Source: Flavobacteriales bacterium (lineage in GTDB: Bacteria > Bacteroidota > Bacteroidia > CAIKAF01). Taken from it: DNA of 53,034 bases. Positions 1 through 14,991 of this stretch are shown here, in pieces. Position numbers and translations under genes: made by a program. The first letter of the stretch is position 1. Each line of letters starts with the position of its first letter. The DNA is taken from the NCBI GenBank assembly GCA_026936045.1, contig JAIXKU010000215.1, forward strand, positions 1 through 53,034. Reading direction: 5' to 3'. The notes under the pieces are model-generated. The model made no database searches, was not told the origin of the DNA, and was given only the letters and a program-made list of their open reading frames with translations.

Positions 1-1
1 G

Positions 2-1423
2 AAATATTATTTGGGCATTGATCTAGGATCTACAACCTCTAAAGCAGTCATCATTGATGAAAATGATCAAATTGTTGGAAGAGGGATTACAAATACTCGA
101 GCAAACTATAAAGTAGCAGCCGATATTGCAAAAGACGAAGCTGTATATAATGCCCGTTTCTCTATTCTTAAAAAGAAACTGGAACAAGAAATTCAGGCAA
201 AACCCGCCTTTGCCAAATATATCTCTGATTTAGAAAGCATGTTCCAATACGAGCAATTTAAAGTGCGCCTTGACAAACTGGGTGATGAATTATTGAAAAC
301 ATGTAAAACATATTTTGCAGATGCTCAAACTCAGGAAGAAATGATTACACATCTGCGTAATATCCGTAAAATGTTCAAACCAAAGATTAAGCAGGATTAT
401 CTTTATAATAACCTCGGAGCAAAAAATCAGTTTTTTAGAGATATCGTTTCTGAAAAATATAATGAAGAGGTGGCTAAGCTTGAGATGGCATTGTTTGAAC
501 CTTTAATGACTGTTTGGGATAAGAGTATCAGCCCGGCTGAAAATGAACGTGTACTGTTCGATTTCAAAGAACTAGTAAACAAAGCCATGGAGGAACTTAA
601 AAAGAAATACGAAAATCTTCCTGATACCGTAGCAGAAGGTGTGAGCGTAAACTTTGATGCAGAGCTTAATCTCTTAAAAGGTGAGTTTGATCATGTAGAG
701 AAAACACTTCGTACACATATTGAAGAAATCGCTGATATGGATTTCAACATAGCAAATATGACAGGTACCGGTTATGGACGTGCCTTATTACCATTTCCTC
801 AGGAATGTATCCGCTCAGAAATTCTCTGCCATGCTTTTGGTGCGCATGCTGTGTTCCCAAATACAAGAACAGTACTTGATATCGGCGGACAAGATACAAA
901 AGCTATTCAGGTTGACCAGTATGGACTGGTTACAAGCTTCCAGATGAATGACCGTTGTGCAGCCGGTTGTGGAAGATATCTTGGATACATAGCCGACGAG
1001 ATGAGTATCTCGTTGAATGAACTTGGCCCAATGGCTATGAAAGCTGAGAAAGAAGTAAACATCTGTTCTACCTGTACGGTTTTTGCCGGTGCTGAATTGC
1101 GTGAATTAACTAACTTAGGTGAAAAACGCGAAGATATTCTTGGCGGATTGCATAAGTCAATCATCATGCGTGCTATGTCGTTGATAGCCCGTTCAGGTGG
1201 TGCTTTTAACGAGTTTACATTCACCGGTGGCGTAGCTAGAAATCCCGCTATTATCAAATACCTTGCTGAATTGGTTAGAGAAAACTACGGCGATCAAATA
1301 AAGATTAATATTGATGCCGATTCAATCTTTATGGGCGCATTAGGCGGTGCTCTCTTTGCACGTCAAAATATCAATACTGCATTACCAAACAGTAAGCAGG
1401 CTAAAAATGTAGAGCAAGATTAA
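2..1423 (+). CDS. BcrA/BadF-type (long form) ATPase subunit of an ATP-dependent benzoyl-CoA-reductase-like enzyme (BcrAD_BadFG / acyl-CoA dehydratase activase family); 5' end runs off the window
   Basis: The frame is open from nt 2 (KYYLGIDLGSTTSK), so the TTG at 11 is probably not the true start. Actin-fold phosphate-1 motif GIDLGSTTSKAV, then a roughly 200-aa helical insertion, then GTGYGR and DIGGQDTK. The two cluster-type Cys motifs are NDRCAAGCGRYL and CSTCTVFAGAE, followed by FTGGVARN. The 470+ aa size fits the long BcrA/BadF subunit rather than a 260-aa stand-alone activase. Confidence 0.7.
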   Translation, partial: KYYLGIDLGSTTSKAVIIDENDQIVGRGITNTRANYKVAADIAKDEAVYNARFSILKKKLEQEIQAKPAFAKYISDLESMFQYEQFKVRLDKLGDELLKTCKTYFADAQTQEEMITHLRNIRKMFKPKIKQDYLYNNLGAKNQFFRDIVSEKYNEEVAKLEMALFEPLMTVWDKSISPAENERVLFDFKELVNKAMEELKKKYENLPDTVAEGVSVNFDAELNLLKGEFDHVEKTLRTHIEEIADMDFNIANMTGTGYGRALLPFPQECIRSEILCHAFGAHAVFPNTRTVLDIGGQDTKAIQVDQYGLVTSFQMNDRCAAGCGRYLGYIADEMSISLNELGPMAMKAEKEVNICSTCTVFAGAELRELTNLGEKREDILGGLHKSIIMRAMSLIARSGGAFNEFTFTGGVARNPAIIKYLAELVRENYGDQIKINIDADSIFMGALGGALFARQNINTALPNSKQAKNVEQD

Positions 1424-1425
1424 TT

Positions 1426-2577
1426 ATGCCTCAAAGCATTCTCATACTCGGTGCGGGATTAATAGGTAAAGCCATTACTGCTGATTTATTTCAGGAATAT
1501 GACGTTACCTGCGCCGACCGTAATGAGCATGCGCTAGATTTATTAAATCAAGCCTATGGCGTAAAAACACTTGTTTTAGATGCTAATGATGACAACAGGC
1601 TGCAAAATGCCGTCCAGCCTTATGATCTTGTAATAATCGCTGTTCCGGGATTTATGGGATTCAACACTCTAAAAACGGTCATCAGCGCCGGGAAAAATAT
1701 CGTTGATATTTCTTTCTTTCCTGAAAATCCTTTTCTACTCGATCAAATGGCCAAGGAAAAGAATGTAACTGTCATAGTGGATTGCGGTGTTGCGCCCGGC
1801 TTGTGTAATATGTGGGCCGGGTATCAGGATATCCAGATGAAAATGCAGAGTTACGAATGCTTGGTAGGCGGTTTGCCCAAAGTAAGGGAATGGCCATTTG
1901 AATACAAAGCTGTCTTCTCGCCAGCAGATGTAATAGAGGAATATACCCGCCCTGCTCGATATATTGAAAATGGAAAGCAAATAGTAAGAGACGCATTATC
2001 CGATATCGAGCTTGTACAAATTGACGGTGTTGATACATTAGAGTCATTTAATACCGACGGCTTGCGTTCATTGGCACACACACTTTCGCACGTACCAGAC
2101 ATGAAGGAAAAAACACTCCGTTATCCCGGTCACGCAGCACTCATGAAGGTTTTTCGCTCAATCGGATTCTTTGAAAAAGAAGAGATCTCAGTTAATCATT
2201 CAACTGTTTCTCCTTTACAATTCGCATCCAGCCTTCTTTTTTCCAACTGGAAACTTAAGCCCAACGAAGAAGATTTTACAATCATGCGCGTAACGATGAA
2301 AGGTGAAGCAGCTAATGGAGAAAGCCGTATCGTTTGTTATACGCTGCATGATACGTATGATAAGAAACAAAATCTTACTTCTATGGCTCGAACAACCGGA
2401 TTCACATGTTCGGCAACAGCCCGCTTGATACTTAAAGGTATCTTTAATCGAAAAGGTATTTGCCCCCCCGAATATGTCGGCGCTGATCCTCAAGCTTTTA
2501 AAGAAATACAGACTTCCCTGAGTAATCGTAACATTAACATTAAAGAAGAAATATTGACACAGCAGAACATAAAGTAA
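1426..2577 (+). CDS. Saccharopine dehydrogenase-like NAD(P)-dependent oxidoreductase
   Basis: N-terminal Rossmann motif ILILGAGLIGKAI and a DCGVAPGLCN motif. The 383-aa two-domain length is typical of the saccharopine/lysine/carboxynorspermidine dehydrogenase family. Starts 2 nt after the upstream stop. Confidence 0.65.
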   Translation: MPQSILILGAGLIGKAITADLFQEYDVTCADRNEHALDLLNQAYGVKTLVLDANDDNRLQNAVQPYDLVIIAVPGFMGFNTLKTVISAGKNIVDISFFPENPFLLDQMAKEKNVTVIVDCGVAPGLCNMWAGYQDIQMKMQSYECLVGGLPKVREWPFEYKAVFSPADVIEEYTRPARYIENGKQIVRDALSDIELVQIDGVDTLESFNTDGLRSLAHTLSHVPDMKEKTLRYPGHAALMKVFRSIGFFEKEEISVNHSTVSPLQFASSLLFSNWKLKPNEEDFTIMRVTMKGEAANGESRIVCYTLHDTYDKKQNLTSMARTTGFTCSATARLILKGIFNRKGICPPEYVGADPQAFKEIQTSLSNRNINIKEEILTQQNIK

Positions 2578-2595
2578 TCGTTTAATACATCAATT

Positions 2596-3441
2596 ATGAG
2601 CAAATCTATTTATACGGCAGGTATAGACGTTGGCAGTAACTTTATCAAGTTAGTATTGGTAAAATATACTGCTGAAAATCCCGAGATTTTATATAAAGCA
2701 ACAGAAAAAATCCGTAAGCGTGATCCATCGGCTGTGGCTGATGAAATGTTATTAGCAATGTATAAGAAACTAAATATTTCTTACGAAGATATCGCTTATC
2801 TAGCTTCTACCGGTGAAGGGGATTTAATAAAACGCAAGAAAGGGCATTTCTACGGTATGACAACACATGCCAAAGGCGGACACTTCCTATATCCTGAAGC
2901 TAAAACCGTAGTGGATATGGGTGCGCTCTACGTACGCGCCATCAAAGTATCTAATGATTCAAAAGTGCAGGACTACAAAATGACCGGCCAGTGCGCTTCG
3001 GGTTCAGGACAGTTTATTGAAAATATTTCTCGCTACCTAGGCCTTTCTCTTGAAGAAGTAGGTGATGTTTCTCTTACTTCAGAAAACCCGGAGGTATCAT
3101 CCGGTATTTGTGCGGTATTAGCAGAAACGGACGTTATTAATATGGTGTCAAGAGGTATTACAACACCTAATATTATCAAAGGTATTCATATCTCTATCGC
3201 TTCCCGTATCATTAAACTTCTTACCTCCCTTAAGGCCGAATCGCCTATTATGCTTACCGGTGGTATGGCTTTAAATAAAGGTATGATACAAGCCATAGAA
3301 GAACAATTGGCTGAAACAGGTAAGAAATTCGAAATACACTCGCATCCGGATGCTATTTATGCCGGTGCACTTGGCGCTGCTTTATGGGGTGGATTCAGAT
3401 ATTATAAGATCAATGAGAAGAAAGAAGTAGTAGCTAATTAA
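2596..3441 (+). CDS. BcrD/BadG-type (short form) ATPase subunit, BcrAD_BadFG family
   Basis: GIDVGSNFIKLV, Cys motifs GQCASGSGQF and SGICAVLAETD, and LTGGMALN. 281 aa matches the short BcrD/BadG/HgdC size class. Confidence 0.7.
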   Translation: MSKSIYTAGIDVGSNFIKLVLVKYTAENPEILYKATEKIRKRDPSAVADEMLLAMYKKLNISYEDIAYLASTGEGDLIKRKKGHFYGMTTHAKGGHFLYPEAKTVVDMGALYVRAIKVSNDSKVQDYKMTGQCASGSGQFIENISRYLGLSLEEVGDVSLTSENPEVSSGICAVLAETDVINMVSRGITTPNIIKGIHISIASRIIKLLTSLKAESPIMLTGGMALNKGMIQAIEEQLAETGKKFEIHSHPDAIYAGALGAALWGGFRYYKINEKKEVVAN

Positions 3442-3451
3442 TAATTAATAT

Positions 3452-4561
3452 ATGAAAAAGTACCTCTCCACACTTGAAATGTTAGCTATGATGAGTTGTT
3501 CTGTCTTTGCTCAGATAACCATTACAGAGAATGACCTGCCCGAATCCGGTTTTACTTATATTGTAGATAACGACACCTCTACACAAGTGCTACTCGGCAC
3601 ACCCGGGCCATTAGCGCAAGCTTGGGATTACAGCATGCTGGCCAGTCATTACCCCAAAGTGCCTACCTATGACAGCACCATTCATACGGCTTATGCCGGT
3701 GCTTTCCCGGCATCTACACATTATACCTACGGCCCGGCTATAATGTATGGATCATTGTATGGTGGCGCACCGGTTGGTTCACAAGGTATGAATAACGGAT
3801 ATATGTTTTGGCGACGCGACATGACCGGTTTTTGGGTGGAAGGATTTTTGGCCGAACAAGGTACTTTTGCCGACGTAAATGTTTATTATACACCACAGGA
3901 ACTTTTAATCCCGGCACCGGCCACGTATGGTGATTCTTATAATAATACCAGCAATTGGGAATTATGGATGAATAAAAATACGGCTGATTATGATACACTC
4001 TATAGGTGTAATGTTACCAAAACGATCACCGTGGATGCCTTTGGCAGTCTTACTATTCCATCCGGCACCTTTAATTTCATAAGGTTTCATGAACATGTCA
4101 TAAAAGTGGATAGCATATTTGCAGTTCTTAATAGCATCCCACTTTACAGCATGGAATTTACGCGTGATACGTCCAATAATTATCTGTATTACTCCAACGA
4201 TGTAACTTATCCGCTTTGCAGCGTTCATGCCGATGCCAATAATTATATCAGATCAACAGAACATTTTGTGATTAAAGTGCCCATGAGCGCTGAAGAAGAA
4301 GAAACAGCAAATATACAACCGGTGGTTTTCCCCAATCCGGCTTCTTCTTTAATTCAAATAAGCATTCCTTATGGCCTTTCTGCAAATGAACCATGTATTA
4401 TCGTCATTTATGACCTTTCCGGTCGTCAGGTAATACATACCATTTCACAAAGTGAAACTATTAGTCTCTCAACAACTCATTTGCCAAATGGATTATATAT
4501 ATACACCATTACGAATCATAAAGGGAATATATATCAGGGTAAATTTATAATACGTAAATAG
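3452..4561 (+). CDS. Secreted protein of unknown function with C-terminal T9SS sorting domain
   Basis: Signal peptide ending SVFAQ. The C-terminal roughly 80 aa (nt 4313-4558) carry the T9SS CTD pattern VVFPNPASSLIQISIP ... NGLYIYTI ... GKFIIRK. Paralogous to the CDS at 40793-41899: both share AQITIT..D.P, WD[YF]S.L, YGDS, VD.[FW]G..T.P and the CTD. Confidence 0.7.
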   Translation: MKKYLSTLEMLAMMSCSVFAQITITENDLPESGFTYIVDNDTSTQVLLGTPGPLAQAWDYSMLASHYPKVPTYDSTIHTAYAGAFPASTHYTYGPAIMYGSLYGGAPVGSQGMNNGYMFWRRDMTGFWVEGFLAEQGTFADVNVYYTPQELLIPAPATYGDSYNNTSNWELWMNKNTADYDTLYRCNVTKTITVDAFGSLTIPSGTFNFIRFHEHVIKVDSIFAVLNSIPLYSMEFTRDTSNNYLYYSNDVTYPLCSVHADANNYIRSTEHFVIKVPMSAEEEETANIQPVVFPNPASSLIQISIPYGLSANEPCIIVIYDLSGRQVIHTISQSETISLSTTHLPNGLYIYTITNHKGNIYQGKFIIRK

Positions 4562-4564
4562 CGC

Positions 4565-6298
4565 GTGCAAGTTATCAAATCTGATATTACATTAGGCCAG
4601 ATAGTTCCAAACTTAGGTACTATGCTGGAAAGGAACGCTAAGCAGTTTGCCGAGAAACAGGTGTTTTTTGAGAAAGATGAATCCGGCACATATCAGGGTA
4701 TTACGTGGAAAGATTTCTATAATAATATTTTAAACATTGCTGCCAACTTGCAGTCATCCGGCTTTCAGAAAGGTGAAAAGATAGTAATCTTCTCACGTAA
4801 TTGCCTGCATATGCTTGAGGCTGAGCTGGCTATTATGGCGTCGGGAGGTATTGCCGTACCCATCTTTGCCAATTTTAAAAAAGAAACAGCAGCTTTACTT
4901 ATCAAACACTCTGATGCCGCCTATCTGATTATTGCCGGACAAACACAAAATGAGCAGTTGGAAGATGATTTGCATCTTAAACGTATTTGGACTTTTGAAG
5001 ACATATCACATCCCAGAATCTCAAATATTCATCCTTTCTCTGAATTATTAAAACCACGAAAGGATCAAAGTTTCCATCTTGATATCCATACACCGGCCGA
5101 TACCATTTGTCTAAATATGTACACCTCCGGCACAATGGGTGTTCCCAAATGCGTACAACTCACGCATAAGAATATCTTATCTCAGCAAGCGGCGTTAGAA
5201 AATATCTTAAACATTACACCTACTGATCGTTTCTTGGCATACTTGCCTTGGCACCATAGCTTTGGCGGTATCTTTGAACTTTTCTCTGCTTTATACAACG
5301 GCGCTCCGTTTTATTTGGAGAGCAGCTACGGGAAAGATGTAAATCAGATCTTTGAGAACTGGAGAAAAGTGAAGCCTACTGTTTTCTTCAGTGTTCCCAA
5401 AGTGTATCAGTCACTGTTTGAACTGGCTATGACAAGCCCCGAAGCCGAGAAGATGTTTTTTAATTCAGGATTGCGCTTTGTATTTACGGCAGCAGCAGCG
5501 CTACCGGAAAAGCTTTCAAACGAGTTTGAAAAACGAAATATACCCGTTATAGAAGGTTGGGGATTGACAGAAACCTCTCCTTGCTGCACCCTCACAGATC
5601 CTCGGTTAAAACGCATATCAGGCCTTGTTGGTAAACCTATCCCCGGTATCAGCATCCGTATTGCCGATGATGATGAAATTCAGGTGCAAGGACCAAATAT
5701 TATGGTGAGTTATTTTAATAATCCCGAAGCCAATGCACAAGCATTCACTGATGATGGCTGGTACAGGACCGGTGATGTAGGTGAAATTACACCTGACGGA
5801 TTACGACTGATAGCACGTAAGGATCGCATATTTAAACTTTCAAACGGCGAAAAGGTTATTCCCACTGATTTGGAGAAAGCCATTGAACGTACATGCCATT
5901 ACGTACAATATGTAGTGGTGGCAGGTAGTGGTGAAGAATACCCTGTCGCTTTAATTTTCCCAAATACAAAACTACTTGAGAGGCCCGACTATCAGGCTAC
6001 GCCCGATGAAGGATGCTTTTGCCCTCGATCGCTTCATGAATTAACCCGCTGCTTGCATGGTTGTTTGCTTAAAGCCAATGACAGCATTGGTCAGAAATTT
6101 TCAAAGGCACGTTTTGCCGCGCTGATTCGTGATGAACTTTCCTTAGAATCGAATACGTTAACACCTTCAATGAAAGTAGCGCCTAAGAATGTATTAGAGC
6201 GCTATAAAGCTCATTTAAAAAATCTATATGGTGATCATGTTCCTGTTTCAGAGGAAGTATTTGTAATAGAATTGGAGAACCCAAAAAGACAAATGTGA
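4565..6298 (+). CDS. AMP-forming acyl-CoA synthetase (long-chain acyl-CoA ligase type)
   Basis: Adenylate-forming motifs YTSGTMGVPKCV, GWGLTETS, GWYRTGDVG and RKDRIFKLSNGEKV. The C-terminal LTPSMKV tail and 577 aa length fit the ACSL/FadD-long type. GTG start 3 nt after the upstream stop. Confidence 0.85.
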   Translation: MQVIKSDITLGQIVPNLGTMLERNAKQFAEKQVFFEKDESGTYQGITWKDFYNNILNIAANLQSSGFQKGEKIVIFSRNCLHMLEAELAIMASGGIAVPIFANFKKETAALLIKHSDAAYLIIAGQTQNEQLEDDLHLKRIWTFEDISHPRISNIHPFSELLKPRKDQSFHLDIHTPADTICLNMYTSGTMGVPKCVQLTHKNILSQQAALENILNITPTDRFLAYLPWHHSFGGIFELFSALYNGAPFYLESSYGKDVNQIFENWRKVKPTVFFSVPKVYQSLFELAMTSPEAEKMFFNSGLRFVFTAAAALPEKLSNEFEKRNIPVIEGWGLTETSPCCTLTDPRLKRISGLVGKPIPGISIRIADDDEIQVQGPNIMVSYFNNPEANAQAFTDDGWYRTGDVGEITPDGLRLIARKDRIFKLSNGEKVIPTDLEKAIERTCHYVQYVVVAGSGEEYPVALIFPNTKLLERPDYQATPDEGCFCPRSLHELTRCLHGCLLKANDSIGQKFSKARFAALIRDELSLESNTLTPSMKVAPKNVLERYKAHLKNLYGDHVPVSEEVFVIELENPKRQM

Positions 6299-7515: not shown

Positions 7516-9347
7516 GTAAAAAATCGGAACCTATACGCGCCTTGGTAATAGGGCTTGGTCCTGTTGGCATGATACTTTCCGTCAAGCTTCAGCAGGCCGG
7601 TTGTCATGTGGCACTCTGTGAAGCCAACGAAAACAAGGCTGAGAAGATAAAAACAGATGGCATTATCTTAGAAAACGTATTCAATGAGAAAGCCCATTTT
7701 GAAGATGTTTATACACGCATAGAAGATGCCAAAGATTTTGATGCCGATTATATATTCTTTGCTTTAAAGACAACTCATACACCGGATGCTGTCAAGAAAG
7801 CTGAATCATTCATTACATCTAAAACAATAGCTGTTTCTGTTCAAAATGGCATTGATACAGAACTTATGCTCGTTGCCGGTTTTGGAGAAAACAGAACACT
7901 GCGTATGGTAGTAAACTATGCCGGTAATACCACATCTCATAATACAACAAGAGTTACGTTCTTTACACCGCCTAATTATATTGGAAGTATTAATGATGTT
8001 GCTAAAGACAGAGCCGCTGAATTAGCGTCAATTCTTACCGGCGCCGGACTTGAAACCAAAGATGTCTCTTCCTTTGAGCTGATGAAGCGCATATGGGAAA
8101 AGACCATTCTTAATACCTCGCTCAGCGCACTGTGTGGTGTAAGCCGTCTTACAATGGCTGAAGCCATGACAGACCGAGATACACTTGAACTTATTGAACA
8201 AATCATTCAGGAGGGTATTGAAGTGGCTCGCGCAGAAAGAATCATCTTCCCCGATGAATTCTTGCGTCAATGTATGCGCTATCTGAAGAAAGGAGGCGAT
8301 CACTTCCCATCTTTGGCTGTCGATCTAATAAATAATCGTCCTACAGAAATAGATTTTCTAAATGGAAAGATTGTTGAATATGGCAGAAAGCATTATATAC
8401 GCACTACACTCAACTTAGCAATGACCAATATGGTTAAGGCTATGACAAGCAAAAATATTTTATCCCGTGTACCCGGTGCTGCAGGCGATATCACTAAGAA
8501 GATAATCGAGAAAGGCATAGTTGACAAAAATATTCTGCCGGCTCAATTAAAATCCGTATCGGCCTACTTAGGTATAGACCTGGGTTCTGCTTATACCAAG
8601 TTCAGTGTGATTGATGAAAATGGGAAAACACTTTTCAGGTATTTCCTTCCTACACTTAGCAGCGATAAGCAGACACGAATTCAGGTCATGCAGGCCATCG
8701 CGTCCAGCTTTAATGTTCAATACAGCTGTGCTACCGGCTACGGCCGCAAGCATTTTACCGAAACAGATATTGTTAAAACAGAAATAAACTGCGCTGCGGC
8801 AGGTGTTTCTTTTACTTATCCCGGAGAGAAAAATATTATTGACATTGGTGGAGAGGATATCAAAGTTATCCGTTGTGATGCGGATAATAATGTATTGAAT
8901 TTCTATATGAATGATAAATGTGCCGCCGGCACCGGTTCCTTTCTTTCCGAAATTGCCGAACGAGCCAATATCAATATCAGCGAGATGAGTGGGTTGGCAT
9001 CCTTATCAACATACGATAAAGAACTTAATAGCTTCTGCACCGTATTTGCCAAAACCGAAATCATGAACTGGATCTTTGATGGCATGTCATTGCAAGATAT
9101 TGCCAGAGGTATTTATATCTCTATCGCCAACAAGGTTGCAAAAATGCGCTTAGATCCAGGTATCCCGACCTATATGATAGGTGGTGTCATTGCCCATCAT
9201 CCGTATTTAAAAACATTGCTGGCTGAAAAATTCAATAAGAAGATTGAGATTATGGATCATCCACAATTTATCGTCTCTCATGGCGCTGCGGTTATAGCCA
9301 TGCAAACCCACCAGAAAAAGAATAAACAATCTGCTGTAACGGCATAG
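7512..9347 (+). CDS. Fusion protein: N-terminal 2-dehydropantoate reductase-like (PanE/ApbA) domain + C-terminal BcrAD_BadFG activase-type ATPase domain
   Basis: aa 8-312 (nt 7533-8447): Rossmann VIGLGPVG, WEKTILN, SLAVDLINNRPTEIDFLNGKIVEYG (PanE/ApbA C-terminal signature). aa 351-611 (nt 8562-9347): YLGIDLGSAYTKF, ATGYGR, DIGGEDIK, Cys motifs NDKCAAGTGSFL and NSFCTVFAKTE. One uninterrupted 611-aa frame. The ATG overlaps the upstream stop (ATGA). Confidence 0.8.
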   Translation: MSKKSEPIRALVIGLGPVGMILSVKLQQAGCHVALCEANENKAEKIKTDGIILENVFNEKAHFEDVYTRIEDAKDFDADYIFFALKTTHTPDAVKKAESFITSKTIAVSVQNGIDTELMLVAGFGENRTLRMVVNYAGNTTSHNTTRVTFFTPPNYIGSINDVAKDRAAELASILTGAGLETKDVSSFELMKRIWEKTILNTSLSALCGVSRLTMAEAMTDRDTLELIEQIIQEGIEVARAERIIFPDEFLRQCMRYLKKGGDHFPSLAVDLINNRPTEIDFLNGKIVEYGRKHYIRTTLNLAMTNMVKAMTSKNILSRVPGAAGDITKKIIEKGIVDKNILPAQLKSVSAYLGIDLGSAYTKFSVIDENGKTLFRYFLPTLSSDKQTRIQVMQAIASSFNVQYSCATGYGRKHFTETDIVKTEINCAAAGVSFTYPGEKNIIDIGGEDIKVIRCDADNNVLNFYMNDKCAAGTGSFLSEIAERANINISEMSGLASLSTYDKELNSFCTVFAKTEIMNWIFDGMSLQDIARGIYISIANKVAKMRLDPGIPTYMIGGVIAHHPYLKTLLAEKFNKKIEIMDHPQFIVSHGAAVIAMQTHQKKNKQSAVTA

Positions 9348-9457
9348 CATAAGACCATTCCCGACTTGAGAAAACAAGTCCTTATACAGGTTACAGACGA
9401 AAAAAAATAAATGCTTAGCATGTGTTCAAATATCATCCGAAGCTCAAAAAAAACGAC

Positions 9458-9465
9458 TAATTTTG
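9458..9465 (+). promoter_or_regulatory. Candidate Bacteroidota -7 promoter box (TAATTTTG) upstream of the had-like gene
   Basis: Exact match to TAnnTTTG, 7 nt before the ATG at 9473. It lies in the only sizeable gap (125 nt) of the cluster. Confidence 0.3.
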
Positions 9466-9472
9466 ATGCGCT

Positions 9473-10531
9473 ATGAATAAAATACATCAATGGCAGATGA
9501 CTGCCTTAAAAACCCCTTTCTCTCTTGTCAGTTCTGATATGCCGACTATTCAATCCAATGAAGCATTGGTAAAAGTGGCCGGTTGCGGTGTCTGTCATAC
9601 CGATATCAGTTTTTGGAATGACGGTGTACGTACAAAAAAAGACTTACCCCTTACATTAGGTCATGAAATCAGTGGAATCGTTCTTGACGGGCCTGAGCAT
9701 CTCAAAGGGAAGAATGTTATCATTCCTGCTGTTTTACCCTGCGGTGAATGCGACTTATGTAAGAAAGGACGAAGCAATATTTGCCAAAATCAGTTGATGC
9801 CCGGCAATGATTTTCATGGTGGTTTTGCCTCCCATATCGTGGTGCCGCATAAATATTTATGTCCTGTACCCGATTCTGTTCTACAAAAATATGCGCTTGA
9901 GCAGCTTGCCGTAATTGCCGATGCCATCTCTACACCTTATCAGGTGATAAAAAAATCAGAGTTGGAGCCCGGTGATTTAGCTATCGTCATTGGCGTGGGT
10001 GGAGTAGGTGTGTACGGCGCCTTAATCGCTAAGATTATGGGAGCTAAAGTTTTGGCTATCGACATTAGTGATGAAAAATTAGAAGCCGCTAAACGTAATG
10101 GCGTGGATGCTACACTTAACTCTAAAGGCATGGATATAAAAGAGATTAAGAATCAGGTAAAAGTTATTGCACAAAACCTGGGCGCTCCCAAATACGGTTG
10201 GAAAATTTTTGAAATATCCGGCACAGCTCCAGGACAGGAGTTGGCCTTCAACCTCATTACGTTTACATCCACATTGAGCATTGTTGGCTTTACAATGACA
10301 AAACCCGATGTCAGACTTAGTAATCTGATGGCGTTTGATGCAAAACTTATAGGCACATGGGGTTGTAAACCCGAGTTATACCCGGAAGTAGTGGCATTGA
10401 TTGATTCAGGAAAATTAAAAATCAATGATTTTGTACAAATATTTCCAATGTCTAAAATTAATGACGTGTTTGCCGACACCTTGGCTCATAAGTTTGATAA
10501 GCGCTCAGTACTCGTTCCTGATTTTAATTAA
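9473..10531 (+). CDS. had: Zn-dependent medium-chain alcohol dehydrogenase, 6-hydroxycyclohex-1-ene-1-carbonyl-CoA dehydrogenase (Had)-like
   Basis: Catalytic Zn motif VAGCGVCHTD...GHEISG, structural Zn CGECDLCKKGRSNIC, NAD fold VIGVGGVGVYG. Sits immediately upstream of the Oah- and Dch-like genes. Confidence 0.65.
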   Translation: MNKIHQWQMTALKTPFSLVSSDMPTIQSNEALVKVAGCGVCHTDISFWNDGVRTKKDLPLTLGHEISGIVLDGPEHLKGKNVIIPAVLPCGECDLCKKGRSNICQNQLMPGNDFHGGFASHIVVPHKYLCPVPDSVLQKYALEQLAVIADAISTPYQVIKKSELEPGDLAIVIGVGGVGVYGALIAKIMGAKVLAIDISDEKLEAAKRNGVDATLNSKGMDIKEIKNQVKVIAQNLGAPKYGWKIFEISGTAPGQELAFNLITFTSTLSIVGFTMTKPDVRLSNLMAFDAKLIGTWGCKPELYPEVVALIDSGKLKINDFVQIFPMSKINDVFADTLAHKFDKRSVLVPDFN

Positions 10532-10557
10532 TTAAAAAATAAAACTAGATAGCAACT

Positions 10558-11661
10558 ATGGAAGCATTAAACAATCACAATCTTGTTGAAGGGTATAATT
10601 ATACCGAGATTTTATTTGAGAAGAGACCTTGTCTCAATACCGACGGTACACCCGTTAACGGGTTGTATAATGCCTGGATTATTCTGAATAATCCTAATCA
10701 GTACAACTCTTATACAACAAAGGCTGTCAAAGAGATTATTTTAGCATTTGGTGAAGCTTCCAATGACAGAAGCGTAGTAGCGGTTGTCTTTACCGCAGTG
10801 GGCGATAAGGCTTTCTGTACGGGAGGTAATACAAAAGAATATGCAGAATATTATGCCGGTAATCCGCAAGAATATTCACAGTACATGCGCCTATTCAATG
10901 ATATGGTTTCGGCTATTCTTAAATGCGAAAAACCGGTTGTTTGTAGAGTAAACGGTATGCGTATCGGAGGTGGGCAAGAGATTGGCATGGCTGCCGATTT
11001 TACTGTTTCTTCAGATATGGCTAGATTTGGACAGGCAGGCCCTAAACACGGCAGTGCCGCTATTGGTGGCGCTACCGATTTTCTGCATCTGTTTATAGGT
11101 ATTGAGCGCGCTATGAACTCTTTAACGCTTTGCGAACCTTGGACGGCTCATCAGGCATTCCATTTAGGCCTGATTACAGATATCGCACCCGTTCTGAAAC
11201 TAGATGGGAAATTTATTCCCAATCCATTGGTTGTGCTTGATAAATATGCTGACGAGTACGGGAAACCTATCTTCGGCTCCATGAAAACCGGTGAAGAATT
11301 AGCCCAAGCAAAAGCCTTGATGGCCAAAGCGGAAGTGGATCTGTCGAAATTGGATGATGCGGTCAATAAATTAATTGCGAAGTTGCTCCATACATTCCCC
11401 AATTGTACCAATAAAACACTTTCTGAAGTAAGAAAGAAGAAATTAGAACATTGGGATAAAAACAAAGAAAGCAGCAGAGAATGGTTGGCTTTGAATATGA
11501 TGACAGAAGCTAAGGCCGGATTCAGAGCCTTTAACTATGGCTCAAAGAACGACCGTGAGATTGATTTCATCAAACTTCGTCTGTTACTAGCCGAAGGGAA
11601 AGAGTGGAATGAGGCTATGCATCAAACTATTTCGCCTCAGTTCAAAACAGAAAAAGCCTAA
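10558..11661 (+). CDS. oah: 6-oxocyclohex-1-ene-1-carbonyl-CoA hydrolase (ring-cleaving crotonase, Oah/BamA)-like
   Basis: 367 aa long-form crotonase. Long stretches match what I recall of BamA/Oah proteins: YNAWIILNNPNQYNSYTT, DKAFCTGGNTKEYAEYYAG, EYSQYMRLFNDMVSAIL, CRVNGMRIGGGQEIGMAADF, FGQAGPKHGSAAIGGATDF, WLALNMM.EA..GFRAFN. Confidence 0.8.
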   Translation: MEALNNHNLVEGYNYTEILFEKRPCLNTDGTPVNGLYNAWIILNNPNQYNSYTTKAVKEIILAFGEASNDRSVVAVVFTAVGDKAFCTGGNTKEYAEYYAGNPQEYSQYMRLFNDMVSAILKCEKPVVCRVNGMRIGGGQEIGMAADFTVSSDMARFGQAGPKHGSAAIGGATDFLHLFIGIERAMNSLTLCEPWTAHQAFHLGLITDIAPVLKLDGKFIPNPLVVLDKYADEYGKPIFGSMKTGEELAQAKALMAKAEVDLSKLDDAVNKLIAKLLHTFPNCTNKTLSEVRKKKLEHWDKNKESSREWLALNMMTEAKAGFRAFNYGSKNDREIDFIKLRLLLAEGKEWNEAMHQTISPQFKTEKA

Positions 11662-11686
11662 GACAACACAAAAAACATAATTGATT

Positions 11687-12460
11687 ATGGAAAAGATTGT
11701 TTTATCCTATTCCTATAACGATAGCATTGCTCATATCTTGCTCAATGACGGAAAAGGTAACGTATTGGATAATGTTATGATGCTCGAAATTTTGGACTGT
11801 TTACAGCAGATTCAAAAACAAAACAACATCAAGCTTATCACGTTTCAGGGAGAGGGAAAACATTTCTCTTTCGGCGCCAGCGTGGAGGAGCATACTCAAG
11901 ATCTAGCGCCGGTTATGCTTCAGACTTTTCATAAAATCTTTCTGACATTAGTTGAAATGCAGGTGCCAACATTGGCCAAGATCTCCGGTCAATGCTTGGG
12001 TGGCGGGCTCGAACTAGCATTAATCTGTAATTTCCTTTTTGCTGATAAAACAGCCAAACTTGGGCAGCCGGAGATTGTACTGGGTGTGTTCCCTCCTCCA
12101 GCCTCCATTATTCTGCCGGAAAAAATCGGGTTGGCACGTGCAGAAGAATTATTGCTGACTGGCCGAACAATGGATGCTACAGAAGCCCTTCAAATGGGTT
12201 TGATAAACCATATCTTTGAAGATAAAGAAGCTTTGAATATTGGCACAAACGAATGGATTGAGAAATATATCCTTCCCAAAAGTGCTTCTTCTCTACGATT
12301 TGCCACCAAAGCAGCCAGAATTAAATTCCATCATGTGCTAAATAATTTTCTCCCACAGCTTGAAGCCTATTATACGCGTCAGCTTATGACTACACACGAT
12401 GCCAATGAAGGAATACAAGCTTTTCTTGAGAAAAGAAATCCAGACTGGAAAAACCTATAA
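11687..12460 (+). CDS. dch: Enoyl-CoA hydratase (crotonase), cyclohexa-1,5-diene-1-carbonyl-CoA hydratase (Dch)-like
   Basis: About 257 aa crotonase with FSFGASVEEH, GQCLGGGLELALICNF and GQPEIVLGVFP. Position after the oah-like gene. First ATG is at 11687 (the ORF track starts at TTG 11681). Confidence 0.6.
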   Translation: MEKIVLSYSYNDSIAHILLNDGKGNVLDNVMMLEILDCLQQIQKQNNIKLITFQGEGKHFSFGASVEEHTQDLAPVMLQTFHKIFLTLVEMQVPTLAKISGQCLGGGLELALICNFLFADKTAKLGQPEIVLGVFPPPASIILPEKIGLARAEELLLTGRTMDATEALQMGLINHIFEDKEALNIGTNEWIEKYILPKSASSLRFATKAARIKFHHVLNNFLPQLEAYYTRQLMTTHDANEGIQAFLEKRNPDWKNL

Positions 12461-12745
12461 TTCGCCCCTTGCTGATTAATTACATGCATTATACAATTCT
12501 AGCGACAGATTGTGTACACTAGTTTTTAATTTTACCTACGACCCAAGTAACAATTAATGAACTTAAGAAAGGTAATGTATATTACTTCTTATATATTTAC
12601 ATCGTGAATTGTAAATACCATAAAGAATAATTCCATCTATACCAAATGGTGATTCTCAAACTTCTTTTCATGGTACGTTTACCTGCATGTCTTAGACATT
12701 ATCGAAAACCTTTTGAGCAAAACATGCTAATTCTAATAAAGTGAT

Positions 12746-12753
12746 TATTTTTG
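12746..12753 (+). promoter_or_regulatory. Candidate -7 promoter box (TATTTTTG)
   Basis: TAnnTTTG match 15 nt upstream of the ATG at 12769, at the end of a 300-nt AT-rich intergenic region. Confidence 0.3.
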
Positions 12754-12768
12754 AGAAAATTATACTCT

Positions 12769-14726: not shown

Positions 14727-14840
14727 CAGCTTAAAAATACGTAGTAATACGTATAAAATTCAGTAGTTTACACAGTAAATCTTCTACTTTTTTTGTCTTA
14801 ATTTTGTGTTAATCAAGTTTCTAATCATCTGTAACCAAAG

Positions 14841-14876
14841 GCTATCGGAATGAACTAACCTCCGGTAGCTTTTTTC
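14841..14876 (+). terminator. Rho-independent terminator after the ABC1 kinase gene
   Basis: 9-bp stem GCTATCGGA/TCCGGTAGC (one G-U pair), 11-nt loop, followed by TTTTTTC. Confidence 0.6.
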
Positions 14877-14991
14877 TTAATTTCTTTTTTCAGCTTTTTT
14901 GAGTATTTCAATTAGTTCATTCCAATCTATCCTTTCGGGACAAATCGCTTACCGACAAATTTTATGTAGGTTTGTGCATAGATTAACTGGT

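Follow-up and report, generated by a model that had tools for sequence, protein, structure and literature searches.

What does a set of benzoyl-CoA-type genes do in a Flavobacteriales genome, and why does it carry genes that the canonical clusters do not? The 53,034-nucleotide stretch analysed here (the window) opens with ten co-directional, tightly packed plus-strand open reading frames at positions 1-12460, where the ORF listing holds no minus-strand frame longer than 116 aa. The original prediction had counted eleven genes, although its own list also held ten. Its strand and junction sizes were matched exactly, with junctions in gene order of +2, +18, +10, +3, -4, -4, +125, +26 and +19 nt. 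A Pfam search returned the domain order it had given: BcrAD_BadFG (473 aa visible), Sacchrp_dh, BcrAD_BadFG (281 aa), Por_Secre_tail, AMP-binding, HGD-D, an ApbA+ApbA_C+BcrAD_BadFG fusion, ADH_N/ADH_zinc_N, ECH (367 aa) and ECH (259 aa).

A benzoyl-CoA reductase pathway and its insertions

The long ATPase had been described as cut by the 5' end of the window, and comparison with locus L001 revealed that only its first residue is missing (474 aa in full; gene at L001 7404-8828, window position 1 being L001 7406). Upstream extension, which had been proposed as a check, found the BcrC and BcrB genes directly upstream of the window on contigs of the same organism (99.3-99.9% nucleotide identity). 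The unit therefore reads bcrC-bcrB-bcrA-(SDH-like)-bcrD-(T9SS cargo)-ligase-HGD-D-PanE::activase-had-oah-dch, and the part in the window is the 3' four-fifths of a ~15-kb, 12-gene chromosomal cluster of an uncultured Flavobacteriales bacterium.

Pathway proteins were assigned with NCBIfam/TIGRFAM equivalog models and their cut-offs. The upstream BcrB scored 704.9 bits against benz_CoA_red_B (cut-off 486.55) and BcrC 447.2 bits against benz_CoA_red_C (421.15), and the short ATPase subunit BcrD (2596..3441, + strand, 281 aa) reached 316.5 bits against TIGR02261, benz_CoA_red_D (312.85). The long ATPase subunit, BcrA (2..1423, +; BcrAD_BadFG 225 bits), covered the whole of TIGR02259, benz_CoA_red_A, at 442.9-445 bits. 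Six cysteines of BcrA are invariant across 49 orthologues, and C133 and C172, the sole cysteines of BcrD, across 51. Downstream, had (9473..10531, +, 352 aa), encoding 6-hydroxycyclohex-1-ene-1-carbonyl-CoA dehydrogenase, scored 445.2 bits against TIGR03201, dearomat_had (338.65). The ring-opening 6-oxocyclohex-1-ene-1-carbonyl-CoA hydrolase gene oah/bamA (10558..11661, +, 367 aa) scored 590.6 bits against TIGR03200, dearomat_oah (464.45), with BadI the runner-up family at 122.7. The last gene, dch (11681..12460, +, 259 aa), probably encodes cyclohexa-1,5-diene-1-carbonyl-CoA hydratase, judging by its match to TIGR03189, dienoyl_CoA_hyt (229.7 bits; runner-up family 157), and its position after oah, which it keeps in 45 of 80 related loci.

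The predicted ATP-dependent aryl-CoA dearomatisation pathway is thus borne out by BcrB, BcrC, BcrD, Had and Oah, all above equivalog cut-offs. The naming of the last three genes as Dch, Had and Oah also held, the Dch model being the best match for its protein. BcrA and Dch keep their identities as best matches, with the BCR and Dch models ahead of all others by wide margins, although both fall below their cut-offs (578 and 292.5). None of the downstream enzymes is generic, and the ATPases have BcrB and BcrC partners upstream, the two points on which the prediction had said it might fail. Since bzd-type models score low, the reductase is of Thauera type. The order BcrC-BcrB-BcrA-BcrD, which we take from the original prediction to be that of Thauera bcrCBAD, is here split by the SDH-like gene in this lineage. 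At the level of homology, all parts of a class I ATP-dependent benzoyl-CoA reductase pathway of Thauera/Rhodopseudomonas type are shown to be present, and BcrCBAD, Dch, Had and Oah would convert benzoyl-CoA, by way of the cyclic dienoyl-CoA, to 3-hydroxypimelyl-CoA.

The unexpected extra genes of the original prediction are present, but they are of two kinds: a conserved core of ligase, HGD-D protein and PanE::activase, and two sporadic genes. Of the latter, a saccharopine-dehydrogenase-fold NAD(P) oxidoreductase (1426..2577, +, 383 aa; Sacchrp_dh_NADP and Sacchrp_dh_C; best solved relative P. horikoshii PH1688, 3abi, 227 bits) stands between bcrA and bcrD and is present in 10 of the 80 loci. 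A secreted T9SS cargo protein (3452..4561, +, 369 aa), with a signal-like N-terminal sequence and a Por_Secre_tail at residues 292-367, occurs in six; it has a paralogue at 40793-41899 of the window (27% identity), and its AF2 single-sequence model (pLDDT 34) was too low for use. Both genes are lineage-specific passengers, accessory to the cluster. The 125-nt gap before had (9348..9472, +) may hold an internal promoter: TAATTTTG sits a few nucleotides before the had ATG and fits the Bacteroidota -7 box. The gap gave no Rfam match and no inverted repeat. By synteny, this is the site of a thiolase gene in 38 relatives, either alone or accompanied by a 3HCDH/ECH fusion or a HisC-like aminotransferase.

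The embedded ligase, HGD-D and PanE::activase genes

The comparison set comprised 80 related loci from genomes of other species, with protein identities of 55-90%. The genes for BcrCBAD, ligase, HGD-D protein and PanE::activase follow in the same order in 43 of them, 32 of which also have Had and Oah; because order is kept at such identities, the arrangement is not chance. On this sequence comparison the ligase, the HGD-D protein (HGD3) and the PanE::activase form a conserved core, kept in most of the 80 loci.

The AMP-forming acyl-CoA ligase (4565..6298, +, 577 aa; AMP-binding and AMP-binding_C_3) reached no NCBIfam cut-off, and its nearest solved structures, at ~100 bits each, are oxalate-, OSB-, malonyl- and feruloyl-CoA ligases and FadD5; on both grounds we rejected a BadA/BclA-type benzoate ligase. 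In L033, L034, L080, L083 and L085 an ADP-forming acyl-CoA synthetase takes its place, and ligase remnants persist in three of the five.

HGD3 (6295..7515, +, 406 aa; Pfam HGD-D 198.7 bits) is a single-subunit, alpha-type [4Fe-4S] protein. The original prediction had called it a BcrB/C-like subunit; the family stands, but the protein falls in a separate clade of its own in a neighbour-joining tree and was rejected as BcrB or BcrC. Its NCBIfam scores, 217.5 bits for HadB and 169.1 for BcrB, lie far under the cut-offs (750 for HadB), and its PDB matches are HadB (3o3m_A, 162.6 bits), MbdO (115) and BzdO (80). It shares 29% identity (172 bits) with the cluster's own BcrB and is about equally close to HadB. 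In the alignments, C81, C120, C348 and E52 fall on the cluster ligands and glutamate of HadB and BzdO, and its FPENHGA and C-R-E-V motifs resemble the YPENQAA and C-N-Q-V of HadB, unlike the PEINxLQ and C-x-T-F of BcrB and MbdO. Across 70 orthologues 176 of 406 columns are invariant, and five further cysteines are invariant in the Bacteroidota orthologues.

The PanE::activase fusion (7512..9347, +, 611 aa; ApbA, ApbA_C and BcrAD_BadFG) joins a PanE/ApbA-type NAD(P)H 2-oxoacid reductase (~residues 1-315; TIGR00745 169.3 bits, above 141.35) to an HgdC/HadI-type ATP-dependent [4Fe-4S] activase (~350-600; TIGR00241 164.5 bits, above 125.4). The activase half matches HadI (4eht, 141.8 bits), MbdQ (136.5) and HgdC (118.4) in the PDB, and its motifs NDKC470AAGTG and SFC509TVFA are invariant in the orthologue alignment, as is the PanE catalytic set GxGxxG, QNG, WEK196TILN, SLAVD and TEIDFLNG. 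The database holds more than 120 clusters of the full-length fusion.

Several observations make one unit of the three genes. The ligase and HGD3 genes overlap by four nucleotides, as do those for HGD3 and PanE::activase, and the identities of the latter two proteins co-vary over loci (r=0.85), whereas those of BcrB and HGD3 do not (r=-0.18). PanE is fused instead to the HGD-D protein in a Myxococcota MAG (P0121), P0127 and P0147, a Rosetta-stone arrangement. On the unrelated 8.6-kb contig L088, which has no Bcr genes, PanE, an HGD-D-clade protein (46%), the activase and an orthologous ligase (39% identity over its full length, beside the HGD-D gene) are all unfused and adjoin an acyl-CoA dehydrogenase, and in L091 and L089 the HGD-D protein is paired with an ADP-forming acyl-CoA synthetase, as in five Bacteroidota loci. 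In other phyla the module occurs without benzoyl-CoA reductase; there PanE is either a separate protein or part of a fusion with the HGD-D protein, which in these relatives has no beta-type partner alongside it. From these sequence data we infer that ligase, HGD3 and PanE::activase are an undescribed radical-enzyme module. The HadB and HadI structures as best solved relatives, the kept cysteines and glutamate, the HadB-like motifs and the invariant PanE set suggest dehydratase-like chemistry, with HGD3 as the putative catalytic component of a 2-hydroxyacyl-CoA-dehydratase-like enzyme. To our knowledge, characterised 2-hydroxyacyl-CoA dehydratases are all alpha/beta heterodimers with a CoA-transferase; the single subunit and ligase found here count against this assignment. 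The low HadB score, the like closeness to BcrB and the five further invariant cysteines also count against it.

HGD3 and the PanE::activase could instead make up another ATP-dependent enzyme that reduces or dehydroxylates aryl-CoA, HGD3 acting BcrB-like, as a homodimer or with BcrC, on substituted benzoyl-CoA analogues activated by the ligase. The alpha type of HGD3 and its identity to the adjacent BcrB, the glutamate and three cysteines used by BzdO, its place beside reductase genes in 61 of 80 loci and bcrC as the sole beta-type gene nearby favour this, as does DCCP, which shows that homodimeric family members with their own ATPase can act as reductases (PMC7317905). However, HGD3 does not match the 7-Cys motif of DCCP, its motifs are like those of HadB, its history is uncorrelated with that of BcrB, its clade occurs with no Bcr gene nearby in L087, L088, L091, L093 and the Bacteroidota locus L034, and a reductase would have no use for a 2-oxoacid reductase fused to either partner. 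We consider it unlikely.

Proposed substrate and route

Taken whole, we lean slightly towards a ring-reduction pathway joined by a dehydratase-like module that is fed by phenylpyruvate or 4-hydroxyphenylpyruvate. The three translationally coupled genes would supply an iron-sulfur radical system, the second one primed by ATP and independent of the first: the PanE domain would reduce a 2-oxoacid to the (R)-2-hydroxyacid, the ligase would form its CoA thioester, and HGD3, primed by one electron from the activase half, would dehydrate the 2-hydroxyacyl-CoA to a 2-enoyl-CoA. We infer, more weakly, that the substrate is most likely phenylpyruvate or 4-hydroxyphenylpyruvate from Phe or Tyr. Cinnamoyl-CoA or 4-coumaroyl-CoA would then result, and 3HCDH/ECH and thiolase, encoded in relatives' clusters, could shorten them to benzoyl-CoA or 4-hydroxybenzoyl-CoA. 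A Mo enzyme resembling 4-hydroxybenzoyl-CoA reductase, with the linked XdhC and MocA as its maturation factors, would dehydroxylate the latter, and the benzoyl-CoA so formed would enter the reductase.

The aromatic amino-acid link is drawn from neighbouring genes and from a peptide-using MAG (PMC8099898). The clusters of L037, L058 and L080 enclose a HisC-family aminotransferase (TIGR01141 297 bits against a cut-off of 276.55), and genes for XdhC and MocA stand on the flanks in the window's organism as well as in 12-17 other loci. In L079 the Mo enzyme lies next to the cluster and in L087 next to a PanE::HGD-D fusion; its best family is 4-hydroxybenzoyl-CoA reductase alpha (815 and 733 bits, short of the 994.55 cut-off); such Hcr-like enzymes occur in one of 80 Bacteroidota loci (L079), plus L087. 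Thiolase is present in 38 loci and the 3HCDH/ECH fusion in 19 (c11) and 18 (c13), but one of each per cluster is explained by 3-hydroxypimelyl-CoA oxidation, so they are no specific argument for cinnamoyl-CoA beta-oxidation. Within the 53-kb window we found no thiolase, 3HCDH/ECH, Kor, aminotransferase or Hcr-like gene and no ferredoxin motif, in keeping with the original remark that none is visible in the cluster; for this genome, those steps therefore rest on relatives. The dicarboxylate ligases among the ligase's nearest solved relatives count against the arylpyruvate reading.

The same ligase neighbours (oxalate-, malonyl- and o-succinylbenzoate-CoA ligases) favour a module that dehydrates 2-hydroxyacyl-CoAs made from aliphatic dicarboxylic 2-oxoacids such as 2-oxoglutarate, 2-oxoadipate (e.g. 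from lysine) or 2-oxopimelate, and whose enoyl-CoA products would join the lower benzoyl-CoA pathway at glutaconyl-, dehydroadipyl- or dehydropimelyl-CoA. Consistent with it are the saccharopine/lysine-dehydrogenase-fold gene inside 10 clusters, an Arg-Glu/Asp pair after the second cluster cysteine throughout the HGD3 clade, beta-oxidation genes that already work on dicarboxylyl-CoAs, and the adjoining acyl-CoA dehydrogenase in L088. Yet the SDH-like gene is sporadic, the ligase scores (~100 bits) are no better than against feruloyl- or fatty-acyl-CoA ligases, and the near-obligate linkage with a ring reductase in Bacteroidota, the association, seen in two phyla, with XdhC, MocA and Mo enzymes resembling 4-hydroxybenzoyl-CoA reductase, and the embedded aminotransferase are left unexplained; we regard it as improbable.

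That no dearomatisation occurs, the genes being those of ordinary fatty-acid beta-oxidation accompanied by a 2-hydroxyacyl-CoA dehydratase and its activators, is very hard to believe: crotonase, Zn-ADH, HGD-D and BcrAD_BadFG families all have non-aromatic members and BcrA and Dch are under their cut-offs, but five of seven proteins exceed curated benzoyl-CoA pathway cut-offs, Oah by far over its runner-up, and the BcrC-BcrB-BcrA-BcrD order is present with the SDH-like gene interposed.

Host and biological setting

Some related loci are named Competibacteraceae, Bifidobacterium or Chlorobiota, and the reductase genes and embedded module have different histories, but it is most improbable that the cluster was gained recently by horizontal transfer or stems from faulty assembly or binning, given GC (0.40-0.41) and tetranucleotide correlation (0.92-0.95) in line with the window (other segments 0.89-0.95), flanks of housekeeping and several T9SS cargo genes, independent assembly of the same contig from numerous samples (41 index blocks; 23 contigs read), and a cluster common to ~80 related Bacteroidota species. 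The composition check proposed earlier thus gave no sign of recent transfer. The oddly named loci hold the same cluster, L007 also with a T9SS cargo gene, and are most likely mislabelled bins.

The statement that Bacteroidota are not known for this pathway holds for biochemistry and isolates, but not for NCBI protein names, where such proteins are already labelled 'benzoyl-CoA reductase subunit B [Flavobacteriales bacterium]', nor for a metatranscriptome in which a Flavobacteriales MAG expresses peptidases, peptide uptake and benzoyl-CoA degradation enzymes (PMC8099898). Prior knowledge is this database annotation and that one remark. Beside the cluster in relatives stand NarI, a Crp/Fnr-type regulator and a KorAB-like 2-oxoacid:ferredoxin oxidoreductase, which point to an anaerobic setting. 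If the proposed route is true, it would allow peptide-scavenging, probably nitrate-respiring Bacteroidota to break down aromatic amino acids, aryl-lactates and benzoate independently of oxygen.

The reductase and ring-cleavage genes

Ten ORFs, all read in the same direction, occupied window positions 2-12460, and the ORF listing contained no competing minus-strand ORF longer than 116 aa across that span. The original prediction had announced eleven genes while itself listing ten, and it is the list of ten that held; the junctions measured here (+2, +18, +10, +3, -4, -4, +125, +26 and +19 nt) agree with the spacing it described. A Pfam search also returned the domain order it had described: a long BcrAD_BadFG protein (BcrA), a saccharopine-dehydrogenase fold (SDH-like), a short BcrAD_BadFG protein (BcrD), a T9SS cargo protein with a Por_Secre_tail domain (3452-4561), an AMP-binding ligase (4565-6298), a 406-aa HGD-D protein (6295-7515, here HGD3), a 611-aa fusion of ApbA, ApbA_C and BcrAD_BadFG domains (7512-9347, here PanE::activase), a Zn-ADH (Had), and crotonases of 367 aa (Oah) and 259 aa (Dch). 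To reach past the window start, we looked up the exact BcrD protein, which led to the independently assembled contigs L001-L006 of the same organism. The two contigs that were compared with the window, L001 and L003, were 99.3% and 99.87% identical to it at the nucleotide level over 13.4 kb. Two further HGD-D genes, encoding proteins of 388 aa (BcrC) and 430 aa (BcrB), lay immediately 5' of bcrA, where it had been proposed that such partners be sought, and still further 5' were divergent genes for a MocA-like cytidylyltransferase and XdhC. BcrA is 474 aa in full, its first residue alone being missing from the window.

Families were assigned with curated NCBIfam/TIGRFAM equivalog models, namely TIGR02259, TIGR02260, TIGR02261 and TIGR02263 for the Bcr subunits and TIGR03189, TIGR03201 and TIGR03200 for Dch, Had and Oah. 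Five proteins scored above cut-off: BcrB (704.9 bits, cut-off 486.55), BcrC (447.2 bits, cut-off 421.15), BcrD (316.5 bits, cut-off 312.85), Had (TIGR03201, 445.2 bits, cut-off 338.65) and Oah (TIGR03200, 590.6 bits, cut-off 464.45). BcrA (about 445 bits, cut-off 578) and Dch (TIGR03189, 229.7 bits, cut-off 292.5) scored below; both aligned end to end with their model, which was clearly the best match for BcrA and the best for Dch, the next family reaching 157. The class I four-subunit set is complete, with the ATPases BcrA and BcrD inside the window and the beta-like BcrC and alpha-like BcrB directly upstream. Models for the bzd-type enzyme of Azoarcus gave far lower scores than the Bcr-type models, indicating an enzyme of the Thauera/Rhodopseudomonas type. 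In BcrB, C91, C126 and C369, the predicted ligands of the active-site [4Fe-4S] cluster, aligned with cysteines of MbdO and BzdO; C133 and C172 of BcrD and six cysteines of BcrA, from which the bridging cluster of the ATPase dimer would draw its ligands, were invariant among 49-51 orthologues, and BcrC had six conserved cysteines. The equivalog matches support the core of the original prediction, an ATP-dependent dearomatisation pathway: the downstream enzymes did not prove generic, and BcrB and BcrC were not missing upstream.

Compared with bcrCBAD of Thauera aromatica and badDEFG of Rhodopseudomonas palustris, the cluster has the same two families, the same four subunits and the same C-B-A-D order, with equivalog-level BcrB, BcrC and BcrD, and with Dch, Had and Oah encoded alongside as they are there. 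It differs in its divergent BcrA and Dch, in a ligase unlike BadA/BclA, in the three to five extra genes interleaved in the operon, and in having no ferredoxin gene in or near the cluster. An ORF scan for the ferredoxin motif CxxCxxCxxxC found none in the 53-kb window and, in the loci of relatives, only an RnfB-like protein in L007, the closest relative at the species level. Ferredoxin and its regenerating system are an accessory rather than a strictly defining feature of the reductase.

Within the 125-nt gap, at about window 9455-9465, TAATTTTG fits TAnnTTTG, the -7 promoter consensus of Bacteroidota. It stands a few nucleotides ahead of the had ATG (9473) and may act as an internal promoter, from which a near-leaderless had-oah-dch transcript would start. 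A sigma-70 promoter scan of window 1-13200 gave counts near shuffled expectation, using a model that is ill-suited to Bacteroidota promoters. An Rfam search of window 1-16000 returned no match, and an inverted-repeat search of the two larger gaps returned a single weak pair only.

HGD3 and the PanE::activase fusion

The original prediction had taken HGD3 for a BcrB/C-like subunit, an assignment that has to be abandoned. HGD3 was 29% identical to the neighbouring BcrB; it scored 217.5 bits against the HadB model (NF052455, cut-off 750) and 169 bits against the BcrB model, both far below the cut-offs, with HadB the higher. Its best solved relative was HadB, which in 2-hydroxyisocaproyl-CoA dehydratase is the alpha subunit that binds the substrate; MbdO and BzdO came after it. 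The cluster cysteines C81, C120 and C348 and the glutamate E52 aligned with HadB, and these residues were universal in the tree set, the exceptions being a few HGD3-clade sequences that are divergent or partial. The HGD3 motifs FPENHGA and C-R-E-V resemble YPENQAA and C-N-Q-V of HadB, where BcrB and MbdO have PEINxLQ and C-x-T-F. In a rough neighbor-joining tree, HGD3 and its relatives formed a clade separate from both the BcrB/MbdO and the HadB clades. HGD3 is neither BcrB nor BcrC; by homology it is predicted to work like a 2-hydroxyacyl-CoA dehydratase, yet it lies outside the characterised families. Its place among reductase genes and its residual likeness to BcrB would also suit a module, comprising ligase, HGD3 and PanE::activase, that acts as a second ATP-dependent aryl-CoA reductase or dehydroxylase; given the HadB-like motifs, we consider this unlikely.

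HGD3 has cysteines at positions 32, 81, 120, 136, 169, 291, 348 and 378, and in 70 Bacteroidota orthologues all eight were invariant. Of these, C32 and C291 were also common in the wider HGD3 clade, C291 aligning with a cysteine of the double-cubane cluster protein (DCCP), and C136, C169 and C378 occurred in Bacteroidota only; the five extra invariant cysteines may form a second metal site or serve redox regulation. We considered HGD3 as a DCCP itself and dropped the idea, because its cysteine spacing misfits the 7-Cys motif CX19CX18-19CX29CX166-170CX32-34CX32C and because only C81, C120 and C348 are clade-wide. The DCCP model NF040772 gave 65 bits against a cut-off of 350, and profile comparison with PDB chains gave 23-24 bits.

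The C-terminal half of the fusion scored 164.5 bits with TIGR00241 (above 125.4) and had HadI as its best PDB match, which identifies it as a predicted HgdC/HadI-type activase; C470 and C509, the putative ligands of the bridging [4Fe-4S] cluster in the motifs NDKCAAGTG and CTVFA, were invariant. The N-terminal half scored 169.3 bits with TIGR00745 (PanE/ApbA reductase), above 141.35. Its motifs GLGPVG, QNG, WEKTILN, SLAVD and TEIDFLNG were invariant in 60 orthologues and contain the Rossmann GxGxxG and the canonical catalytic set of Asn, Lys, Ser and Glu, which in E. coli are N98, K176, S244 and E256. The two halves are joined via a poorly conserved linker. Overlaps of 4 nt connect the ligase with HGD3 and HGD3 with PanE::activase. 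The ligase was also considered as a hint to the substrate; its PDB and NCBIfam matches were mixed, at about 100 bits, and assign none.

The module across genomes

One genome per GTDB species was scanned with HGD3 as query, which gave 80 loci at 66-90% identity; genes were counted by tblastn and ORF clustering, and many of the loci are truncated contigs. No locus carried a cultured-isolate label (0/80), and nearly all were labelled Flavobacteriales, Vicingaceae, Saprospiraceae, Chitinophagales or 'Bacteroidetes'. PanE::activase was found in 68 of the 80, the ligase in 63 and at least one Bcr subunit in 61. BcrCBAD, ligase, the HGD-D protein and PanE::activase stood in the same order at 43/80 loci, and at 32/80 this set was completed by Had and Oah. 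The SDH-like gene (10/80) and the window-type T9SS gene (6/80) are thus lineage-specific insertions. A thiolase gene occupied exactly the position of the window's 125-nt gap in 38 loci, and 3-hydroxyacyl-CoA-dehydrogenase/enoyl-CoA-hydratase (3HCDH/ECH) fusions were found in 19 and 18 loci (ORF clusters c11 and c13, respectively). A KorA-like 2-oxoacid:ferredoxin oxidoreductase subunit adjoined the cluster in 18 loci, L007 also encoding KorB-like and RnfB-like proteins; these KorAB-like genes resemble the KGOR by which Thauera regenerates its ferredoxin. The 53-kb window contained no thiolase, 3HCDH/ECH fusion or KorA-like gene anywhere. The window's organism and 12-17 other loci had XdhC and MocA genes linked to the cluster, and NarI, a Crp/Fnr-type regulator and hemerythrin were occasional neighbours in relatives.

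Several variations on the cluster were seen in these loci. Other T9SS cargo genes lay between had and oah in L011, L041, L047 and L051, and between bcrA and bcrD in L027 (3427-6015). One family of these proteins is about 397 aa long and another is an 862-aa SBBP/SprB-repeat protein, and they have only the C-terminal sorting domain in common with the window's protein; several lineages have independently gained unrelated T9SS cargo genes, inserted at different operon positions. In L013, L038, L050, L053, L055 and L083, a gene for hydantoinase/oxoprolinase A (712 aa) followed the 3HCDH/ECH fusion 3' of PanE::activase, at the usual place of Had, Oah and Dch, and in four of the six the next gene encoded a 558-aa protein that is hydantoinase-B-like by eye. 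The hydantoinase/oxoprolinase family includes acetone and acetophenone carboxylases, and these genes hint at a variant C6-C3 or ketone branch. The MocA-like cytidylyltransferase and XdhC were fused into one 458-aa protein adjoining the cluster in L039 (9544-10920) and L048, and in many loci where XdhC and MocA occur an SDR (244 aa) stood alongside. Four loci bore non-Bacteroidota names: L061, L074 and L043 comprised two Bifidobacterium/Bifidobacteriaceae and one Chlorobiota, and L007 (JACSSC010000026.1; 75% nucleotide identity to the window, 90% HGD3 identity) was labelled 'Candidatus Competibacteraceae bacterium'. All four carry the same cluster, L007 also having an orthologue of the T9SS cargo protein, and wrong binning or labelling of these MAG contigs is the probable explanation.

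For relatives of HGD3 beyond its orthologues, 1.8 billion representative proteins were searched and the nearest non-orthologous ones taken. Three of these (P0121, P0127 and P0147) were PanE::HGD-D fusions, so that the same reductase domain is there joined to the other partner. At a Myxococcota locus, L087, a PanE::HGD-D fusion was followed by a stand-alone activase, a xanthine-oxidase-family Mo enzyme of three subunits, XdhC and a MocA-like protein. On contig L088 the PanE was unfused, and its companions were an acyl-CoA dehydrogenase, an HGD-D protein (46%), an activase and a ligase sharing 39% identity with the window's ligase over the full length. HGD-D and activase genes stood together on L093, and on L091 with an ADP-forming acyl-CoA synthetase; on L089 an HGD-D gene was next to an ADP-forming synthetase. 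None of these five loci carried any Bcr gene or beta-type HGD-D gene. Likewise, no second, beta-type HGD-D gene was found beside the activase in the window's own cluster or on L087, L088, L091 and L093, the only beta-type gene nearby being bcrC. No CoA-transferase gene accompanied the module; an AMP-forming ligase or ADP-forming acyl-CoA synthetase was present instead. The synthetase took the ligase's place in five Bacteroidota loci, with ligase remnants in three. At L033, L080 and L083 the synthetase (CoA_binding+Succ_CoA_lig+ATP-grasp_5, 712 aa) precedes HGD3 and a remnant of about 200 aa of the AMP-forming ligase is adjacent, a non-orthologous displacement in progress.

Among the Bacteroidota loci, the identities of HGD3 and PanE::activase co-varied (r = 0.85), those of BcrB and HGD3 did not (r = -0.18), and BcrB was anticorrelated with the ligase (r = -0.72); reductase genes and module have thus recombined with the architecture retained. 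There is evidence, then, that ligase, HGD3 and fusion form one putative functional unit independent of the reductase, and the module makes up an uncharacterised branch, apparently with a single subunit, of the radical dehydratase/reductase superfamily. We tentatively propose, as a possibility rather than an expectation, a hitherto unrecognised class of single-subunit, ATP-activated ketyl-radical 2-hydroxyacyl-CoA dehydratases whose PanE reductase is fused to the activase in Bacteroidota or to the dehydratase in Myxococcota and others, and which is wired into the class I reductase operon of about 80 uncultured Bacteroidota species. Literature searches found no published description of the cluster or the fusion.

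The module shares its functional logic with HadBC/HadI/HadA/LdhA of C. difficile and FldBC/FldI/FldA/FldH of C. sporogenes. The PanE domain would act as the 2-oxoacid reductase (there LdhA or FldH), the AMP-forming ligase would serve CoA activation (HadA or FldA), HGD3 would be the [4Fe-4S] dehydratase (HadBC or FldBC) and the activase domain its ATP-dependent activator (HadI or FldI). Among solved structures HadB and HadI come closest, and the cluster cysteines and glutamate are kept. However, the module has one alpha-type subunit and lacks the beta subunit, and it uses an AMP-forming ligase or ADP-forming synthetase where the clostridial systems use a CoA-transferase. Moreover, its reductase is of the PanE/ApbA type rather than the D-2-hydroxyacid-dehydrogenase fold and is fused to the activator (elsewhere to the dehydratase), its product is apparently oxidised further instead of reduced, and its hosts are probably facultative, nitrate-respiring Bacteroidota rather than amino-acid-fermenting Clostridia. 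To our knowledge, the known (R)-2-hydroxyacyl-CoA dehydratases of the HGD-D family (HgdAB, HadBC, FldBC, LcdAB) are heterodimers of homologous alpha and beta subunits, both carrying a [4Fe-4S] cluster, and depend on a class III CoA-transferase; their alpha subunit has three cysteine ligands, one open Fe site and a conserved glutamate close to the substrate. A single HGD-D subunit with its own homodimeric BcrAD_BadFG ATPase is likewise seen in DCCP/DCCP-R (YjiM/YjiL), which HGD3 matches weakly and from which it differs in being without the 7-Cys motif and in its association with CoA-activating enzymes.

Candidate substrate, host and meaning

Beyond homology, everything said here about the function of the cluster is inferred. 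Reasoning from the direct analogues in clostridial reductive amino-acid fermentation, the module would convert a 2-oxoacid to an (R)-2-hydroxyacid, then to a 2-hydroxyacyl-CoA and a 2-enoyl-CoA. An aromatic substrate is favoured, because the module sits inside a ring-reduction operon in 61/80 loci, because a HisC-family aminotransferase scoring above the equivalog cut-off is embedded in three loci, and because of the cluster's linkage to XdhC and MocA and of the 4-hydroxybenzoyl-CoA-reductase-like Mo enzymes beside the module. It is favoured also because a published Flavobacteriales MAG from an anoxic benzene/nitrate reactor expresses peptidases, peptide uptake and benzoyl-CoA degradation enzymes (PMC8099898). 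The Mo enzymes at L079 (Bacteroidota) and L087 had the alpha subunit of 4-hydroxybenzoyl-CoA reductase (4hydrxCoA_A) as best family and are accompanied by XdhC and MocA; they differ from the xanthine-oxidase-family enzyme HcrABC, with which we compared them, in scoring below cut-off (815 and 733 bits, respectively, against 994.55) and, at L079, in having the small and large subunits fused. No Hcr-type Mo enzyme was found within the window, and in the window's own genome no supporting neighbours were seen except XdhC and MocA. A module that handles dicarboxylic 2-oxoacids is an alternative that we think improbable in view of the ring-reduction setting. An aminotransferase beside an HGD-D relative on L094 was set aside as support, being an LL-diaminopimelate aminotransferase equivalog and probably there by coincidence.

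With the favoured aromatic substrate, Phe or Tyr would yield an arylpyruvate, this an aryl-lactate and then an aryl-lactyl-CoA, which would be dehydrated to cinnamoyl-CoA or 4-coumaroyl-CoA. Beta-oxidation would then give benzoyl-CoA or 4-hydroxybenzoyl-CoA, from which the reductase, Dch, Had and Oah would form 3-hydroxypimelyl-CoA. 3-Hydroxypimelyl-CoA already requires the single thiolase and 3HCDH/ECH pair, which is therefore no specific evidence for cinnamoyl-CoA beta-oxidation. The same chemistry, from a C6-C3 2-oxoacid to benzoyl-CoA by phenyllactyl-CoA dehydratase and one round of beta-oxidation, has been put forward for BzS1, a sulfate-reducing, benzene-degrading Deltaproteobacterium (PMC13416013). 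There, phenylpyruvate to phenyllactyl-CoA, cinnamoyl-CoA and benzoyl-CoA is a hypothesis only: it belongs to benzene activation, as a speculative branch in which the transferases are FldA-like and the dehydratases unassigned, whereas the candidate genes described here are built into the reductase operon across about 80 species.

The remainder of the window holds ordinary Bacteroidota chromosome genes, including those for a CarbopepD_reg_2/Plug TonB receptor, DnaG, ribonucleotide reductase and a GlmS-type amidotransferase, and three further Por_Secre_tail proteins. One of the three (40793-41899, plus strand) is a 27%-identical paralogue of the T9SS cargo protein of the operon, 36 kb downstream; of the others (26284-28605 and 31828-32973, both minus strand), one has an Endonuclease_I and one a Lamin-tail domain. 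The N-terminal domain of the cargo protein and its paralogue matched no Pfam family, and an AlphaFold2 single-sequence model of the cargo protein was unusable (pLDDT 34). A 107-aa phasin-like protein (12751-13074, plus strand) overlaps by 4 nt a UbiB/ABC1 atypical kinase (13071-14726, plus strand); this pair starts 290 nt 3' of dch, is kept in same-species contigs and is apparently outside the cluster. No Pfam match at E<=1e-5 was obtained for the ORFs at 14899-15924 (plus, 341 aa), 24258-25271 (minus, 337 aa), 28625-29062 (minus, 145 aa) and 38168-39886 (minus, 572 aa).

The compositional comparison of 1-12460 with the rest of the contig, which the original prediction had proposed, found cluster GC of 0.40-0.41 and tetranucleotide r = 0.92-0.95 against the rest, comparable to other window segments; nothing therefore points to recent transfer. 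The exact BcrB sequence stands in NCBI as 'MAG: benzoyl-CoA reductase subunit B [Flavobacteriales bacterium]', and the best 120 BcrB database clusters (83-100% identity) were Bacteroidota or Ignavibacteria MAG proteins wherever the source was named. Generic beta-oxidation and recent transfer or artefact are both very improbable on these data.

What is known of ring reduction by class I benzoyl-CoA reductase comes almost wholly from denitrifying and phototrophic Proteobacteria such as Thauera and Rhodopseudomonas; the hosts here are Bacteroidota (uncultured Flavobacteriales, Saprospiraceae, Chitinophagales and others), groups usually modelled as aerobic polymer or protein degraders. By homology, the reductase pathway is of a known type in an unexpected and ecologically important phylum, where its only earlier records are automated annotation and a single sentence in a metatranscriptome paper. 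The module, by the same measure, is a predicted variant of the ATP-activated radical dehydratase/reductase systems, present in about 80 species, its parts tied together by domain fusions across phyla. The full gene set lies on an uncultured Flavobacteriales chromosome and recurs in about 80 Bacteroidota species of lakes, groundwater, sediments and wastewater, which would extend the circle of organisms to which anoxic turnover of aromatic carbon is attributed. It also offers a concrete explanation of why a Flavobacteriales MAG in a benzene/nitrate bioreactor had 'benzoyl-CoA degradation' transcripts, a puzzling observation. The module could also reveal a new route by which aromatic amino acids enter the benzoyl-CoA pathway. 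If the proposal is true, there would be an oxygen-independent route on which Phe and Tyr pass through aryl-lactyl-CoA and then cinnamoyl- or coumaroyl-CoA, reach benzoyl-CoA and go on to ring cleavage. In that case the Flavobacteriales, Saprospiraceae and Chitinophagales that abound in lakes, groundwater and activated sludge, and that are regarded as 'aerobic polymer-degrading', would degrade aromatic rings anaerobically, a capacity so far unrecognised.
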